Made by a program: the position numbers and the translations under genes
Part shown: in pieces, positions 8,985 through 17,090 of the stretch
Layout of the letters: the number at the start of each line of letters is the position of its first letter
Position numbering within the stretch: position 1 is the stretch's first letter
The notes under the pieces: model-generated
Told to the model about the DNA's origin: nothing
The model's input: only the letters and a program-made list of their open reading frames with translations
Database searches by the model: none
NCBI GenBank assembly: GCA_036488585.1
Contig: DASXHH010000009.1
Coordinates: 366-64,365 of the forward strand
Direction of reading: 5' to 3'
Length of the DNA: 64,000 bases
Source: Candidatus Saccharimonadia bacterium
Lineage (GTDB): Bacteria > Patescibacteriota > Saccharimonadia > UBA4664

Positions 8985-10076
8985 CTAAAATTGGCGCTGG
9001 ATGCAAAAGTTAGCCAGTTCGGTAAGGCGGGAGCGAGCGTCTCGGCCGAGACCGGCTTTAGACAGAGCCTGAAGGCTGGTTTTGAGGAACGACTCGGCTA
9101 GTTCCTGAGTTTTTTGGGGCGCGCCAGTGGCCCGCAGCAGCTCTCGTACCGCCTCAAGCTCGGCGGTGCCGGCGTTGCGATGACCCCAGAGCAGGCCAAG
9201 CTCACGCTTTTGAGCGGAGGTGGCAGCTGCAAGCGCGAAGTGGATGAGCACGGTGCGCTTGCCTTCTTGAAGGTCTGAGAGCACCGGCTTACCGAGCGCC
9301 TCCTCACGGCCAAATACGCCGAGCAGGTCGTCGGTAAGCTGGAAGGCCACGCCGAGGGCCTGGCCAAAGATGGCCAGCTCTCGTTGGGTGCTCTTGGTGG
9401 CGCCGGCAAGCTCTGCACCCACCAAAAGCGGTACTTCGAAGCTGTAGCAGGCGGTTTTGTAGCGGCAGACCCGCAGCAGGGTCTCGAGAGCGGGCGGGCT
9501 GATGGTCGGAAGGGCTGCAGCCACATCGGCGAGCTGGCCGCCCATCTCCTCAAACAGCATGCGCTGAACATGAGCCGCGGCGGCCAGTTTGCGCTCGGCC
9601 GGGAACGGCGCCGTGAGGATGGCCTCGAGTCCGAGGGCCATGGTGGCGTTGCCGGCGAGGAGGGCAAAAGACGAGGCCTGGTGCCAGGCTTCATCGGATT
9701 CGAGCCCCTGCTCCACAAAGCGGCGATGGTACACGCCTAGCACGTTGGGGCGACCATGACGGATGGTGTCGCGGTCGATAATATCGTCGTGAATGAGCAG
9801 AAAATTATGGAACAACTCCTGAGAGATGGCCGCTTGCAATGCCGGCTCGCGCTCGCTACCACCACAACCCTCATAGGCGGTCAGCATGATATACGGCCGC
9901 AAGCGCTTCCCACTGCCGAGCGCCTGATCACGCACCACCCCGAGCAGCTCGGCGTAACCGGGGTCGATTGGATGGGCCCGAGCAATGGCCGATTTGAGCA
10001 GGCGGCTCAGGTGCTCGTCAACCTGGGCCTTAAAGCCCCGCGGCATGACTTGGGGTTGGTCAGTTAAGTGCGGCAT
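8985..10076 (-). CDS. short-chain trans-polyprenyl diphosphate synthase (FPP/GGPP synthase-like)
   Basis: First Asp-rich motif FLLIHDDIIDRDTIRHGRP (aromatic at -5) and second motif FQLTDDLLGVFG. Start set at ATG 10076 (MPHLT...); the upstream 57 codons of the raw ORF look non-coding. Confidence 0.8.
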   Translation of the reverse strand: MPHLTDQPQVMPRGFKAQVDEHLSRLLKSAIARAHPIDPGYAELLGVVRDQALGSGKRLRPYIMLTAYEGCGGSEREPALQAAISQELFHNFLLIHDDIIDRDTIRHGRPNVLGVYHRRFVEQGLESDEAWHQASSFALLAGNATMALGLEAILTAPFPAERKLAAAAHVQRMLFEEMGGQLADVAAALPTISPPALETLLRVCRYKTACYSFEVPLLVGAELAGATKSTQRELAIFGQALGVAFQLTDDLLGVFGREEALGKPVLSDLQEGKRTVLIHFALAAATSAQKRELGLLWGHRNAGTAELEAVRELLRATGAPQKTQELAESFLKTSLQALSKAGLGRDARSRLTELANFCIQRQF

Positions 10077-10164
10077 AATACTAGTTTTGCATCTTGTGGT
10101 CAGTTTTAGGCCATAGTTAAGAAAAAGTTTATCTGGATACCCTATGCTTATGCTAAGGAGAGAT

Positions 10165-10833
10165 ATGCGAATTTTATTGGTTGAGGACGATAGGACCGTC
10201 GCCGAGACTCTCACCGAGGCTCTTGGCTGGTATTTCGTGGTCGACAATGCCTATAGTGGCTCTGAGACACTCGAAATGCTGTTTCAACATGCTTATGACC
10301 TAATAATCTTAGACTACACCCTGCCCGACATCCAGGCGCCACTGCTATACGAGCAGATCCGCAGTATCGACCAGACCGTGAAAGTGCTATTGGTAACGGG
10401 CAATGACAACGTGGAAGACAAGATTAAGATGTTGGACGCTGGAGCCGATGACTACGTGATAAAGCCGTTCGAGATCCGGGAGCTGCGTGCCCGCATCCGG
10501 GCGGTGCTGCGCCGAGGCAACCAACGGCCGGGGTCGTCGTTGATAGTGCTCGACGACCTGCAGGTGGACGTGGCGGGCCGGACGGTGAGACGCCGGGGCA
10601 TTGAGATCAAGCTGCAGCGCAAGGATTTCGATATCCTAGAGTACCTGTTGCGCAACCAAGGTCGGGTAGTGACGCGCGAGATGATTTTGAACCACGTCTG
10701 GACCAACCATAAAGAAAGTTCTGGCAATCTGGTGGACGTGCATATTAAGAAGATTCGCGACCAGATAGACAAACCATTCCAGCACCCGCTGATTCACACC
10801 GTGCCGGGAGTGGGTTATAAAATCGACACCTAG
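10165..10833 (+). CDS. two-component response regulator, OmpR/PhoB family (REC + winged helix)
   Basis: MRILLVEDD, DLIILDYTLPD and DYVIKPF in the receiver domain, with a C-terminal Trans_reg_C-like wing. AGGAGAG Shine-Dalgarno precedes ATG 10165. Confidence 0.9.
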   Translation: MRILLVEDDRTVAETLTEALGWYFVVDNAYSGSETLEMLFQHAYDLIILDYTLPDIQAPLLYEQIRSIDQTVKVLLVTGNDNVEDKIKMLDAGADDYVIKPFEIRELRARIRAVLRRGNQRPGSSLIVLDDLQVDVAGRTVRRRGIEIKLQRKDFDILEYLLRNQGRVVTREMILNHVWTNHKESSGNLVDVHIKKIRDQIDKPFQHPLIHTVPGVGYKIDT

Positions 10834-10881
10834 CAGCCGTGAGGCTTACAGGGTGAATTTAAACGAAAGGAGGTGATATGA

Positions 10882-10995
10882 ATGAGCGAAGTGATTAAGA
10901 AGGCCTTAACCGACAAGAGCGCCCGTAATACGGAAGCGCTCCGGGCGGTGGCCACCAAGGAGGTCGCGTCCCCCTGGGGCAGCGTTGACGTCTAA
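10882..10995 (+). CDS. 37-aa hydrophilic peptide (MSEVIKKALTDKSARNTEALRAVATKEVASPWGSVDV) with strong SD and its own terminator, lying between the RR and HK genes
   Basis: AAGGAGGTGA sits 8 nt upstream of the ATG. The ORF ends 4 nt before a textbook terminator. A 6-codon ORF (ATG 10878) precedes it. Confidence 0.4.
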   Translation: MSEVIKKALTDKSARNTEALRAVATKEVASPWGSVDV

Positions 10996-11001
10996 ATAAG
11001 C

Positions 11002-11031
11002 AGACTGGGCGCGGCTCCGCCCAGTCTTTTA
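11002..11031 (+). terminator. rho-independent terminator (AGACTGGGCG-loop-GCCCAGTCT-TTTT)
   Basis: Perfect 9-10 bp GC stem followed by a T-run. Confidence 0.8.
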
Positions 11032-11083
11032 TGAGAATAACAAAACGCTTATGCTTAAACTAATATGAACTATACTTTGTAAA

Positions 11084-12466
11084 ATGCTTTCCCGACTAAT
11101 CGAACGCACATATAAGCTATTCATTAAACCAAAAACGGCCGATGCCGAACAGCGGCGACAAGAGTTTATTCTAAACATTATTCTGACCGGCTCGTTTGTG
11201 CTGTCGCTGGTGGCACTGTTTGTGGTGATTTTGAATCTGGCGGCTGAGAGGGTGTCGTACACCGGCGAATCTCCGGGAATGGCAGTAGTGAGCGTGGCGC
11301 TATTCGGCGGGCTGCTGGCGATTTCCCGCGGCGGTCGGTTTAAGGTTTCGGGCTACACGATTGTGGCACTGTATTTAATGATGGCCTTTTATACCCTGTT
11401 CCGCTGGGGAATTTCGCTGGCGGAAGGCGTGCTACTGATGGCGCTGGTGCTGGTACTGGCCTGGATTTTGCTGGGGACAATCGGCGGCGTGGCGGCCACG
11501 GCTTTGGCGATGGGCGGGCTGATCGTGTTGGGTTACCTGCAGCAGGAACATTTAGTACATTTTGATTCGAGCTGGATGAAGACGCCCGGCAATATGAGCG
11601 ACGGAGTGACATTTTCGCTGACGTTGTGGGTGATTACTATTGTGTCTTGGCTAAGCAACCATGAAACCGAGCGCTCGCGGCGACGGGCGCAACGCAGTGA
11701 AGAGGAGCTGAGGCGGCAGCGCGACTTGCTCGAGGAGAAGGTGCGCGAGCGGACCCGGGAGTTGGAGATAGCCCAGCATGAGCAGCTTATGCAGATGTCG
11801 AAATTCGCGGAGTTCGGTCGGCTGACCTCGGGCATCGTACACGAACTGGTGTCGCCGTTAATGGCGGTGAGCGCCAACCTGCAGCAGATGAACAACCGGA
11901 CCGCCTCCGATAAGCTGCGCCGGGCCTTGGAGGGAACCAAGCGCATGGAGCGCTACATTCTGGCAGCCCGCAAACAGCTGCAGAACCAAGCCGAGGAAGC
12001 GGAATTTTCGGTCAGCCACGAAATTGAATCGGTGGTGGATTTTCTGGCGCCGTTGGCCAAAAAGCAACAGGTGAAAATTGAGTTTATAAAACTGGGCGAG
12101 CCGGAGCTGCGGGGTAGCGCCATTAAATTGCACCAGATAATGACCAACTTGGTATCGAACGCGTTGGACGCCTACGGAACGGCTGAAGTGGCGAGCCAAA
12201 AGCGGGTGGTGGTGGAGCTGGTACGGGCTGATAGCAATGTAATGATACGGGTGCAGGATTGGGGCACCGGAATAGCGGCGGAAAACTTAGACAAGATCTT
12301 TGAGCCGTTTTATACCACCAAGAGCTCCGACCAGGGGATGGGGTTGGGCTTGTCTTTGGTGAAGGAATACGTGGAGCAAGGGTTTGGCGGCGCAATCTCG
12401 GTGACCAGTGACGATGTAAACGGCACAGTGTTTGCGCTCAGACTGCCAATAAAACGAGCGGGCTAG
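11084..12466 (+). CDS. sensor histidine kinase (multi-TM sensor, HisKA + HATPase_c)
   Basis: N-terminal TM helices, H-box GIVHELVSPL, N-box LHQIMTNLVSNALDA, G-boxes DWGTGI and GMGLGLSLV. Confidence 0.9.
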   Translation: MLSRLIERTYKLFIKPKTADAEQRRQEFILNIILTGSFVLSLVALFVVILNLAAERVSYTGESPGMAVVSVALFGGLLAISRGGRFKVSGYTIVALYLMMAFYTLFRWGISLAEGVLLMALVLVLAWILLGTIGGVAATALAMGGLIVLGYLQQEHLVHFDSSWMKTPGNMSDGVTFSLTLWVITIVSWLSNHETERSRRRAQRSEEELRRQRDLLEEKVRERTRELEIAQHEQLMQMSKFAEFGRLTSGIVHELVSPLMAVSANLQQMNNRTASDKLRRALEGTKRMERYILAARKQLQNQAEEAEFSVSHEIESVVDFLAPLAKKQQVKIEFIKLGEPELRGSAIKLHQIMTNLVSNALDAYGTAEVASQKRVVVELVRADSNVMIRVQDWGTGIAAENLDKIFEPFYTTKSSDQGMGLGLSLVKEYVEQGFGGAISVTSDDVNGTVFALRLPIKRAG

Positions 12467-12496
12467 AATTTGGATCAGCGGCGTCGGAGGGAGCTG

Positions 12497-14422
12497 ATGC
12501 ATCGAGTGGCAGAGGAACAGCAACCGGAGGGATGGTTTACTAGTTGGTCGGCGCCAGAAGGTACAACACCTGGTCTGGGGGATGCGCGCCACGCTACCAC
12601 CTTTTTTACGTCCCTGGTGGCGGTCGCGCTGGCGGAGGTGGACGAACCCGAGGCGGAGGTGGTTCGACAACAGTCGGTGGACTGGCTGCTTGGGGAGCGC
12701 GGATCGCAGTGGTCGTTTAACTACTGGGCGCGCGGATCGGAAGAAGCCGCCGCTCTCCCCTACCCCGACGACTGGGACGACACCAGCTGCGCACTGGCGG
12801 CAATAATGCGGCTGCGGCCAGAGGCGGTGAGCGGTGGGGCGTTAGCAGCCATGGTGAATCTGCTCACCGCCACCGAGGTAGCCGAAGGCGGCCCCTACCG
12901 CACCTGGATGGTGAATGCGGAAGCTGGGCCCGAATGGCAGGACGTGGATGTGGCGGTGAATAGTAACATCGCCTATATGTTGAGCCTGCAGAAGGTAGAA
13001 TTACCGAGCTTGTCGGGATTGATAGAGCGGGCGATTGAGGCGAACGAGCTGCGGTCGCCGTATTACCCCACGAGCTACCCGCTAGTGTATTTTGCGTCGC
13101 GATGGTATCGGGGATCGGAAGCGGCGCGCTTGAGGGAATGGCTGAAGTTGCGCAAACGAAACGGCTGGTGGGGCGACCCGCTGCGGACCGCTCTAGCAAT
13201 AACCGCTAGCCTTAACCTGGGGGCGCGCCCGGAGGAGGTGGCGACGCCACTGGCAGTGCTGGCCGGACGGCCACTTGAGAGCTTAGCCCGGGCCTACCCC
13301 TTTTGCTATGATCCGGAGGCGGGCGGGCAACACTACGTAGCAGGGGCGTCGGCCCTGACCACCGCCCTAGTGTTGGAGGCGGACGCCAAGTACGAGCGGG
13401 CTGTGGCGACGACGGGGCGAGACAAGGCGGAGCACGGCGGGCGTGAGGCGGAGTCCGACCGGATTCACGAGCAGGTAGTGAGCCGAGTGCGAGAACGACT
13501 GAATGTTGCCGGGCCCGACCTGGCGGGGTCAGCCAGCTACATCATCGACCGGGTCACGCGGGATGATCCGGCACGGCAGGTAACGCTTCTACCCTGGGTG
13601 TTTCGGCGAGCACTGGGCGAGGCTGGCGAGACGGTTACGGACGAGCGGTTAGTGCTGCTGGGCGCCTTGAGCTTGTTGGGCTGGATGGCCTACACGATTT
13701 ACGACGATTTTCTCGATAACGAGGGTGAGCCCAAGCTACTGCCACTAGCTAACCTGGCCCTGCGCGAAGTGGTGGTGGCCTTCAATTCCGATACGGCCGG
13801 ATCTGGCCTGATGGCAATGGTGGTGCTCGACCTGATGGACGCGGCCAACGCCTGGGAGGTAAACCACTGCCGGGTGGCCAGCCAGGGCGAGCTACTGCGG
13901 GTGGCGCCGCCGGATTATGGCAATTTGGGCCGGCTGGCCGAACGGTCGATGGGTCACGCGCTCGGGGCTATGGTGATGATGTTGGATCTGGGGTATGGGG
14001 CTGACTCACGGGAGGTGGGCGCGGTGGAGGAGTTTTTCCGTCATTATTTAATTGCGCGACAACTCAACGATGAGGCTCACGACTGGAAACCGGACCTTCA
14101 AAGCGGCCATATCAACGCCGTCGGAGCGCGGCTGCTGGCGGCAGTGAGCAACCGCGGAGACAGCGTGGAACGGCTGTACGACGGGCTCGAGCAGGTGTTT
14201 TGGGAACAAGAGATCGGGCCGGTCTGTGAGCGGGTACTAGAGGAGTTAACGCTGGCGCGGGCGGCGCTGGCGCGGGCCGATGTGTCTCGTCCCGAGGAGC
14301 TGGAGGTGCTGCTCGAGCCAGTAGCTGCAGCCGCCCACCGGGCCCTAGAGGGGCAACGTCAAACATTGGATTTTTTGCAGGCCTATCGAGATAAAACCGG
14401 AAACGGTGGAAAAATACAGTAA
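12497..14422 (+). CDS. two-domain terpene-synthase-like protein: N-terminal alpha/alpha-toroid repeats (prenyltransferase/squalene-oxidase-type) + C-terminal alpha-helical isoprenoid-synthase-like domain with DDxxD
   Basis: N-terminal half has repeated helical-hairpin motifs (VDWLLGERGSQWSF; PYPDDWDDTSCALAAIMRL, which is DxDDT(A/S)-like; NGWWGDP). C-terminal half has IYDDFLD (DDxxD) and about 120 aa later QLNDEAHD (degenerate second Asp-rich/NSE-like motif). GGAGGGAG Shine-Dalgarno precedes ATG 12497. The domain assignment rests on motifs only. Confidence 0.45.
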   Translation: MHRVAEEQQPEGWFTSWSAPEGTTPGLGDARHATTFFTSLVAVALAEVDEPEAEVVRQQSVDWLLGERGSQWSFNYWARGSEEAAALPYPDDWDDTSCALAAIMRLRPEAVSGGALAAMVNLLTATEVAEGGPYRTWMVNAEAGPEWQDVDVAVNSNIAYMLSLQKVELPSLSGLIERAIEANELRSPYYPTSYPLVYFASRWYRGSEAARLREWLKLRKRNGWWGDPLRTALAITASLNLGARPEEVATPLAVLAGRPLESLARAYPFCYDPEAGGQHYVAGASALTTALVLEADAKYERAVATTGRDKAEHGGREAESDRIHEQVVSRVRERLNVAGPDLAGSASYIIDRVTRDDPARQVTLLPWVFRRALGEAGETVTDERLVLLGALSLLGWMAYTIYDDFLDNEGEPKLLPLANLALREVVVAFNSDTAGSGLMAMVVLDLMDAANAWEVNHCRVASQGELLRVAPPDYGNLGRLAERSMGHALGAMVMMLDLGYGADSREVGAVEEFFRHYLIARQLNDEAHDWKPDLQSGHINAVGARLLAAVSNRGDSVERLYDGLEQVFWEQEIGPVCERVLEELTLARAALARADVSRPEELEVLLEPVAAAAHRALEGQRQTLDFLQAYRDKTGNGGKIQ

Positions 14423-14448
14423 CGCGGCCGTGTTACGATTAAGCATTA

Positions 14449-15242
14449 TGAAGAAACTGAAACTGCTGGCCTACACATTGAGCCTAGCCGGAATGCTTGC
14501 AGCGGCGCCGGTGCTAGCGGCCAAACCAGCGGGAGCCGGCAAAATCGGCCCCGGCCTGGGCATGGACGTGTCTTATCCGCAATGCGGCAAGAGCCTACCG
14601 ACGACTCCGGCGTTTGCAGTGGTGGGCGTGAACGGGGGCGTGGCTAACAATTTCAACCGTTGTTTTAGCTCGGAGCTGACCTGGGCCGAGGGTGCCAGTG
14701 GTGGCACACAGCAGCCGAAGGTGTCAGTGTACGTAAACACCGGCAACCCCGGCGACGTGTTGGCCCAATACAATCTGGCCGATTGGCCGACCAGCACCAA
14801 CCCGGCCGATCCGTACGGCTCATGCATGGGCGTGTGGACCGATGACTTGGCCTGCTCTTGGGAGTACGGCTATGAGCGGGCGCAAGGCGATGTGGGTTAC
14901 GCCGGCAGTGGTGCGCGCAGATGGTGGCTGGACGTTGAGACTTCCAACAGCTGGACTATCGATGCCGCCAAAAATCGTGCAGCGCTCGAGGGCATGGTGT
15001 ATGGGCTGACTGAGGCCGGCGGCACGGTGGGGCTGTACTCCACGGCTGGTGCCTGGTCTAGCGTTGCAGGTGCCGTGCCCATGGCCAGTCCGCTGTACGC
15101 GTTGCCGGAGTGGCGACCGGGCGCCGAAACCCAGCGCCAGGCACAAAGCAATTGCAGCCTCTCCCCTCTTACTGGCGGTGGTCACATCACGCTCACACAA
15201 TACACCACCACGCTCGATTACGATTACAGCTGCATTAACTAA
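14449..15242 (+). CDS. secreted glycoside hydrolase-like protein (GH25/DUF1906-like TIM barrel), signal peptide
   Basis: Signal peptide MKKLKLLAYTLSLAGMLAAAPVLAA. GMDVSYPQCG... resembles the N-terminal catalytic strand of GH25 and Rv2525c-like proteins. Function uncertain. Confidence 0.5.
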
Positions 15243-16847: not shown

Positions 16848-17090
16848 TTACACGGCTTCGTCCATGTCTTCGTCCTCGCTCGCCCGACCTCGAGCCTCAC
16901 CGCCCTTGCGGCCGGCCGCTTCTACATCTTCTTTCGGACGGTTGGCGAAGTTTCCAGGGTTGTTTTGCTTACCTTGCTTCTTGCCGATTTCTGAATAAAA
17001 CTCGGAACCGCGCTCGTTTCGGACCTTCTCTCCGCCCATCCTGCCGGCCTGCGAGGTGGTCATCGAACCGTCTTTGCTCTTGTCTGCCAT
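16848..17090 (-). CDS. KGG-repeat general stress protein (YciG/GsiB-like)
   Basis: 80 aa, hydrophilic, with repeated KGG-type units (GRKGGEARG, GKKQGKQ, GRMGGEK). Confidence 0.65.
   Translation of the reverse strand: MADKSKDGSMTTSQAGRMGGEKVRNERGSEFYSEIGKKQGKQNNPGNFANRPKEDVEAAGRKGGEARGRASEDEDMDEAV

Follow-up and report, generated by a model that had tools for sequence, protein, structure and literature searches.

Conserved peptide genes beside a two-component system and a fused terpene cyclase–prenyltransferase-like protein point to a possible autoinducing cassette in Patescibacteria

Bacteria of the candidate phyla radiation (CPR; Patescibacteria) have tiny genomes with few regulators, and how they coordinate attachment, host killing or population behavior is an open question. 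The locus considered here lies at positions 8985-15242 of a 64,000-nucleotide (nt) stretch of contig DASXHH010000009.1 of a Candidatus Saccharimonadia bacterium (assembly GCA_036488585.1), hereafter the window. Here, a polyprenyl synthase gene on the minus strand is followed on the plus strand by genes for a response regulator, a peptide of 37 amino acids (aa), a histidine kinase, a 650-aa terpene-synthase-like protein, and a secreted hydrolase-like protein. An initial annotation of the window had listed these six genes in this order, in agreement with the open reading frame (ORF) listing and the family scans, and had proposed that an envelope-sensing kinase controls a terpenoid pathway enzyme with a conditional isoprenoid output. 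This proposal is not supported in that form, as it ignores the peptide, which is the second most conserved element of the locus. The region is considered here, with slightly better than even probability, to be a four-to-five-gene autoinducing peptide cassette of Patescibacteria, namely, a regulator, a precursor peptide, a kinase, and a fused maturase, plus a prenyl-diphosphate synthase.

Relatives of the 650-aa protein (12470-14422, plus strand, TTG start) occur in at least 212 species when one genome per species is scanned, and 80 loci were kept, spanning Saccharimonadales, Levyibacteriota, Microgenomates, Doudna-, Shapiro-, Morani-, Pacei- and Colwellbacteria, and CPR2. In 77 of 79 loci a kinase gene homologous to that of the window adjoins the 650-aa gene, and the remaining two end at a contig edge. 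This kinase gene lies directly upstream on the same strand in 74 loci and is divergent in three close relatives. That kinase and terpene-synthase-like gene are functionally linked, as initially proposed, is thus supported by synteny that is kept in all 77 loci with upstream sequence, and the stop and start codons of the conserved pair mostly overlap (-4, -8 or -1 nt) or nearly abut. The gaps of about 30 nt that had been given for the window are in fact tighter, with 3 nt between the kinase and 650-aa genes and 25 nt between the 650-aa and secreted-protein genes. A regulator homologue is present within 7 kb in 66 loci, typically as the first gene of the operon, and in about 54 loci it is located upstream of the peptide on the same strand. 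A polyprenyl synthase homologue is adjacent in 14-16 of 79 loci (about 18%), mostly directly after the 650-aa gene. Beyond kinase, regulator and polyprenyl synthase, no neighboring gene recurs in more than 12 loci. L002, L003 and L004, which hold the closest relatives of the window's 650-aa protein (48-50% identity), have an inverted peptide-kinase pair that diverges from the 650-aa gene, and no adjacent regulator; the linkage of kinase and peptide to the 650-aa gene therefore survives rearrangement. Complete modules of the CPR type were also encountered in records titled Gammaproteobacteria (L011, L013, L014, L021, L023, L029, L033, L037, L042, L056, L057, L076 and L080), Vitreimonas (L022), Methylomirabilota (L016), Sulfotelmatobacter (L054), and Dormiibacterota (L066), which look like mislabelled or mis-binned Patescibacteria genomes.

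The spacer between the regulator and kinase genes has a median length of 231 nt, which is unusually long for a two-component operon, and contains a conserved small ORF. In the window this ORF (10882-10995, plus strand) encodes the 37-aa precursor-like peptide MSEVIKKALTDKSARNTEALRAVATKEVASPWGSVDV, recognized by the hidden Markov model (HMM) of the family, and is preceded at a distance of 5 nt by a strong ribosome-binding site (AAAGGAGGTGA, 10866-10876). Forty-six copies of the peptide align almost without gaps as MxxLxKKxLTDKxAR…(P)W…, with L9, R15 and W32 invariant, a length of 34-42 aa across loci, and 0-8 variable residues between the invariant Trp and the C-terminus. A search with the HMM against every stop-to-stop segment (40,391 in the loci and the window together) gave exactly one match per locus in 72 loci (71 related loci and the window's own contig; E 3e-17 to 3e-5), and every match lies directly 5' of the kinase gene on the kinase strand. 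Two further weak matches fall at the expected place, nothing else scores below E = 1, and the loci without a match all end short of the expected position. An ATG start is present in 67 of the 71 related copies and a Shine-Dalgarno-like site in at least 51 of the 71. Conservation over genomes of 24-60% GC, together with the ribosome-binding sites, rules out a chance ORF. An adjacent precursor with a conserved acceptor-type Trp is a feature by which Trp prenyltransferase systems are recognized, and it is present in this locus. The gene is present once per locus, and its Trp is invariant. A model in which the peptide is the substrate of the enzyme and the kinase senses the product is favored over the initial proposal.

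The peptide has no match in Pfam or NCBIfam, and in a collection of 5.8 billion proteins its relatives are present as only 66 called proteins, all of them unnamed and lacking Pfam domains. The gene calls of the Joint Genome Institute (JGI) for the window's contig (metagenome contig Ga0376663_0000162) already contain the 37-aa ORF. In another JGI locus, outside the set used for the HMM search (L082), the annotator called a 56-aa ORF antisense in the regulator-kinase spacer (1620-1790) and no plus-strand gene there, which suggests that public annotation misses or mis-calls the precursor family.

The peptide gene had also been assigned its own terminator, and a 10-bp GC-rich hairpin (AGACTGGGCG-CGGCTC-CGCCCAGTCT, then TTTTAT) does follow its stop codon at 11002-11033 on the plus strand, as a terminator or attenuator (fold z = -4.9). 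A comparable hairpin (z < -2) is located 3' of the peptide gene in 41% of the loci. Such an arrangement would suit a regulatory leader or ribosome-arrest role of the small ORF, in which the peptide is no substrate and translation of the Trp codon beside the hairpin sets the read-through into the kinase and 650-aa genes; the ORF resembles TnaC and TrpL in its shortness and its conserved Trp. This is highly improbable here: the conserved amino-acid motif is N-terminal and far from the stop codon, a Trp-to-stop distance of 0-8 codons does not fit positional arrest, 59% of the loci lack a strong hairpin, and the peptide has only one Trp codon upstream of genes that are unconnected to Trp supply.

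The 650-aa family is large, with 1,431 matches at E <= 1e-30 and 3,105 at E <= 1e-3 among 1.84 billion cluster representatives (50% identity). Nearly all of the 150 best matches listed are about 650 aa long, and the named members are Patescibacteria proteins with the annotation 'hypothetical'. For the window's protein, the 601 aa called by JGI are too short, as 40 homologues align from residue 1. Pfam and NCBIfam, polyprenyl-synthase models included, gave no match to the window's protein, and a single-sequence search of the PDB returned noise only. The family alignment contains three invariant blocks, namely, PYPDDxDDT (97-105), (Y)DDFLDxEG (411-419), and RQLxD(D/E)AHDW (530-539). The AlphaFold model (predicted local distance difference test, pLDDT, 89.8) consists of two helical domains: residues 1 to about 320 (12470-13429) with the fold of a beta-only class II terpene cyclase, and residues from about 324 to 650 (13439-14422) with the fold of a trans-isoprenyl diphosphate synthase (IDS), both encoded on the plus strand.

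For the N-terminal domain, motif, profile and fold agree. The PYPDDxDDT block is invariant in 40 of 40 aligned sequences; in the window it reads PYPDDWDDT (12758-12784), with P99, D100, D101, D103 and T105 invariant and D103 as the presumed general acid. The family profile retrieved only one kind of solved protein from the PDB, the beta-only class II cyclase domain of drimenol synthase (9mhs, 8e-13), whose PDDLD(D/T)T motif aligns with this block. In some homologues there are weak matches to PF28380 (AstC-like_C), which represents the same domain type as the drimenol synthase cyclase domain. Foldseek searches with the N-terminal half returned the monodomain 345-aa 'squalene-hopene cyclases' 8pak and 8paj (3e-8) as well as squalene-hopene cyclase. 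By these three lines of evidence the domain is a beta-only class II terpene cyclase, for which cyclization itself is predicted, and the earlier designation as terpene-synthase-like is borne out.

The C-terminal domain carries a sequence similar to the first aspartate-rich motif (FARM) of prenyl synthases, YDDFLDNEG (13700-13726), and a Gln followed by a sequence similar to the second (SARM), within RQLNDEAHDW (14057-14086). D412, D416, Q531, D534 and D538 are invariant, giving DDFLD at 412-416 and D(D/E)AHD at 534-538. Foldseek template modelling scores of 0.65-0.70 (normalized to the target) were obtained to hexaprenyl, geranylgeranyl diphosphate and farnesyl diphosphate (FPP) synthases and to the Trp farnesyltransferase Ord1. 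The spacing of Q531-x-x-D534 equals that of Q216/D219 in Ord1; it does not discriminate Trp prenyltransferases, because canonical synthases also carry FQxxDD. The residues that bind isopentenyl diphosphate (IPP), i.e., GKxxR, RRG after FARM, KT, and GK after SARM, are invariant in 15 neighboring true synthases; none of them was found in the alignment of the 650-aa family, which likewise gave no PF00348 match. The lack of the IPP-binding residues rules out a chain-elongating synthase and counts against the initial picture of an isoprenoid output. A canonical class I cyclase is ruled out as well, as there is no canonical NSE/DTE motif.

The sensor histidine kinase (11084-12466, plus strand, 460 aa) is of the HisKA type according to the family scans, with an H-box SGIVHELVSPL containing H253, followed by HATPase_c. 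Residues of about 25-195 are estimated, by a crude hydropathy measure, to form about six transmembrane helices with very short loops. The spacer before the kinase gene is AT-rich, as had been noted, but the promoter that was placed there is not supported, since a sigma-70 scan gave no site in the peptide-kinase spacer. The response regulator (10165-10833, plus strand, 222 aa) is of the OmpR/PhoB type (Response_reg 1.8e-25, Trans_reg_C 1.9e-24); it starts at the ATG at 10165 (MRILLVEDD), preceded by an AAGGAG ribosome-binding site.

An 11-bp-periodic direct repeat with the consensus wTTTAATrA-nn-wTTTAATAAT was found upstream of the regulator genes. Between -120 and -20 of the regulator start there are 43 matches in 33 of 51 loci, against 0.34 expected from the overall density. 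Smaller clusters are located directly before the peptide gene and before the 650-aa gene, and a further one immediately 3' of the 650-aa gene, a place taken by the synthase in some loci. Such a layout would be expected for the binding site of an OmpR-family regulator and for autoregulation. In the high-GC window, the candidate regulator boxes that can be read from the sequence are degenerate direct repeats at 10102-10133 on the plus strand (AGTTTTAG, AGTTAAGA and AGTTTATC, spaced by 13 and 11 nt). Matches of the window to the position weight matrix (PWM) of the repeat are located at 207-240 and, weakly, at 11046-11077. The former is the best in the window (15.7 on one strand and 12.3 on the other) and lies about 40 nt upstream of ORF 278-994 (238 aa, weak VTT/DedA-like match), which could be an extra regulon member.

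The polyprenyl synthase (8985-10046, minus strand, 353 aa) is a short-chain trans-IDS (PF00348 at 6e-44) with canonical motifs (GKxxR, the FARM LLIHDDIID, RRG, KT, FQxxDD and GK) and a Phe at position -5 before the FARM. It is the probable supplier of the prenyl donor. Its gene is divergent from the regulator gene, with which it shares a promoter region. The best NCBIfam match of the synthase is 'family 2 encapsulin cargo polyprenyl transferase' (226 bits, vs a cutoff of 450), which probably reflects only general similarity; no search for an encapsulin gene was made.

These features may also be read in a way that stays close to the initial annotation, namely, as membrane-terpenoid homeostasis. 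The 650-aa protein would then make a free cyclic terpenoid, e.g., a hopanoid- or drimane-like membrane lipid, out of prenyl diphosphate, the six-helix kinase would sense membrane state or that lipid and adjust expression, and the peptide would be an accessory modulator of the kinase. The all-membrane sensor of the kinase, which lacks a periplasmic domain, the presence of class II and Asp-rich motifs in one 650-aa protein as in bifunctional diterpene synthases, the adjacent polyprenyl synthase in some loci, and the use of free FPP by the closest sequence relative of the N-terminal domain are all in line with it. Nevertheless, it is rather unlikely, as it leaves unexplained why a peptide with an invariant Trp, a conserved N-terminal leader-like motif and a strong ribosome-binding site is universally linked; moreover, the class I NSE/DTE motif is not present in canonical form, and the known peptide-associated IDS-like enzymes all prenylate Trp. 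Neither homeostasis nor a leader function accounts for the combination of an invariant Trp, a conserved N-terminal motif and a variable Trp-to-stop distance.

For the autoinducing cassette, we infer the following scheme of substrate, reaction order, export, ligand-receptor relation, and regulon. The synthase would supply farnesyl or geranylgeranyl diphosphate, and the C-terminal IDS-fold domain would bind the prenyl diphosphate through its DDxxD/Mg site and alkylate the invariant Trp32 near the C-terminus of the peptide, as ComQ, PalQ, and the P domain of ChrPC do. In the N-terminal domain, D103, the middle Asp of DxDD, would protonate the terminal double bond, leading to cyclization of the prenyl chain. 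Alternatively, cyclization to a drimenyl- or copalyl-type diphosphate may come first and transfer second; this order stays alive because of the sequence kinship to drimenyl-diphosphate-forming domains. The lipophilic product would leave the cell and be sensed within the membrane by the six-helix kinase, which would phosphorylate the OmpR-type regulator. The regulator would then bind the 11-bp-spaced TTTAAT repeats before its own operon, resulting in positive feedback, and would drive local output genes, in the window possibly that of the secreted muramidase-like protein.

Several observations weigh against this scheme. The alignment of the 650-aa family to the neighboring synthases by hhalign was marginal and covered the SARM region only (E = 0.009, probability 4.6%). 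The profile of the C-terminal domain retrieved no solved structure from the PDB at E <= 10, Ord1 included, so that the likeness is one of fold only. Across the loci, the neighbor-gene census revealed no protease or exporter that is conserved nearby. Regulator sites, the search for which had been put forward as a check in the initial annotation, were found as repeats before the module genes in relatives, but not convincingly in the window, where the copies upstream of the regulator are degenerate and fall below the PWM threshold. Lastly, the kinase (HisKA) and the regulator (OmpR) belong, by their domain assignments, to other subfamilies than ComP and ComA.

The autoinducing reading is nonetheless preferred because published precedents, i.e., ComQ, PalQ, ChrPC, and kinase-linked cassettes, fit closely. 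The characterized trans-IDS-like peptide prenyltransferases (ComQ, PalQ, and the P domain of ChrPC) all modify Trp, and in ChrPC and NctPC the prenyltransferase is fused to a monodomain class II cyclase that cyclizes the attached prenyl chain (PMC13290415). In Paenibacillus alvei, the PalP kinase, the PalX precursor with a conserved C-terminal Trp, and the PalQ prenyltransferase are encoded in one cluster, PalP-PalX-PalQ (PMC10853753). The earlier statement that such an arrangement is not described was therefore too strong, as ComQXPA and PalPXQ are described analogues.

In the ComQXPA system of Bacillus, which produces the ComX pheromone, a small ribosomal precursor with a Trp near its C-terminus is prenylated by an IDS-like enzyme. 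The CPR cassette likewise combines such a precursor with an IDS-like enzyme, and in both systems a multi-pass membrane kinase, a regulator, the precursor, and the modifying enzyme are encoded together. The CPR system differs in that its predicted prenyltransferase domain shares one polypeptide with a class II terpene cyclase domain, its gene order is regulator-peptide-kinase-enzyme, and its hosts are Patescibacteria; its enzyme, which has no Pfam or NCBIfam match, is set beside ComQ by description. Furthermore, its kinase and regulator are of the HisKA and OmpR types, whereas those of ComQXPA are of the HisKA_3 and NarL (LuxR) types, and the cassette is thus analogous and not orthologous to ComQXPA. 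Like PalPXQ, it groups the gene of a histidine kinase with those of a trans-IDS-like prenyltransferase and a precursor whose C-terminal Trp is conserved. However, PalX has a long NHLP leader and a strictly terminal Trp, whereas the CPR peptides are 34-42 aa long with 0-8 residues after the Trp, and PalQ has no cyclase domain. Compared by description only, the 650-aa protein resembles ChrPC and NctPC in that a monodomain class II cyclase and a Trp-prenyltransferase-type domain (trans-IDS-like in ChrPC) form a single polypeptide. For neither of these has a dedicated two-component system or an occurrence in CPR bacteria been reported, and the CPR cyclase domain is closest to the AstC/drimenol-synthase type and not to MstE.

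Other relatives cover parts of the enzyme only. The HAD-like drimenol and drimenyl-diphosphate synthases (AsDMS and AstC; 9mhs, 9m7d) have the beta-only class II domain with the PDDLD(D/T)T acid motif, but their fusion partner is a HAD phosphatase instead of an IDS-fold domain, they use free FPP, and they are not linked to a peptide or a kinase. Bifunctional class II/class I diterpene synthases such as abietadiene synthase also combine DxDD with an Asp-rich diphosphate-ionization site in one protein. They are of alpha-beta-gamma architecture, in which the beta-gamma interface holds the class II site, and have canonical NSE/DTE motifs, whereas the 650-aa protein is beta-alpha, without a gamma domain and without a canonical NSE/DTE motif.

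The ingredients of the cassette, i.e., prenylated-Trp pheromones, prenyltransferase-cyclase maturases, and beta-only class II cyclases, are thus known singly. A description that joins them to a dedicated precursor of 35-40 aa and an OmpR-type two-component system, conserved across Patescibacteria, was not found, with the 2024 fused-maturase genome-mining data lying outside the comparison. Full-text searches of the literature found no report on ComX, ComQ, quorum sensing, or two-component signaling in CPR bacteria, nor one on signaling chemistry in them. It is tentatively suggested, at somewhat less than an even chance, that an autoinducing system has been maintained vertically throughout the Patescibacteria lineage and uses as its signal a ribosomal peptide with a cyclized terpene on Trp, made by a beta-alpha cyclase-prenyltransferase fusion and sensed by a dedicated six-helix kinase. 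If so, cell-cell, or episymbiont-population, communication would be described in the CPR superphylum for the first time, and bacterial pheromones would gain a new chemical class; the signal could control host-attack functions such as the downstream muramidase. Terpene-cyclized ribosomal peptides, discovered recently and rare as natural products, would then also include what seems to be a conserved physiological signal. The cassette, which is kept in more than 1,400 clusters (50% identity) over all major CPR classes, offers a concrete target, namely, a 35-40 aa peptide, one enzyme, and one receptor. Independently of its function, the 650-aa protein family and the peptide family are now defined, and current domain libraries miss or barely detect both.

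The secreted protein downstream of the 650-aa gene (14448-15242, plus strand, ATG start; 264 aa, with 264-278 aa in the ORF listing) is a GH25-fold muramidase-like protein. Although it has no match in Pfam or NCBIfam, its initial designation as GH25-like is upheld by its fold and by a conserved DxE motif: the six top Foldseek matches of its AlphaFold2 model (pLDDT 83) are all GH25 (E 6e-6 to 2e-4), and GH25 muramidases are the only significant ones. D40, S42, Q45, and WLDxE (D162-x-E164) are invariant in its family, which corresponds to the DxSxxQ and DxE signature of GH25. Its inclusion in the conserved unit fails, as it adjoins the module in just 1 of 80 loci and is thereby ruled out as a module member. 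It is a local passenger, probably co-transcribed in this genome and therefore a candidate local output of the circuit.

The presence of this muramidase-like gene in the window's genome agrees with another view of the modified peptide, in which it would be an effector, i.e., a membrane-active lipopeptide directed against hosts or competitors, and the two-component system would regulate its production or immunity. Prenylation raises the membrane activity of peptides, and prenyl-cyclized, post-translationally modified peptides of ribosomal origin (RiPPs) of the ChrPC/NctPC type are treated as natural products; reportedly, the fused maturases in the 2024 work of Hubrich et al. in Chem act on proteusin, Nif11 or lasso-type precursors, as natural products. 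An effector role is decidedly unlikely for the CPR peptide, in view of its strict one-to-one association with a multi-helix kinase and the position of its gene between regulator and kinase, which is a hallmark of autoinducing circuits (agr, com, pal), and no immunity or transporter gene is conserved nearby.

Outside its own metagenome-assembled genome (MAG), the closest relatives of the secreted protein come from MAGs of Actinomycetota such as Jatrophihabitans, at 55-62% identity. Since Saccharibacteria usually have actinobacterial hosts, gene transfer between episymbiont and host lineages is suggested. Further downstream, the window contains a KGG-repeat stress-protein gene at 16848-17090 (PF10685, 7e-11), which lies between uvrC and uvrA and is unrelated to the cassette.

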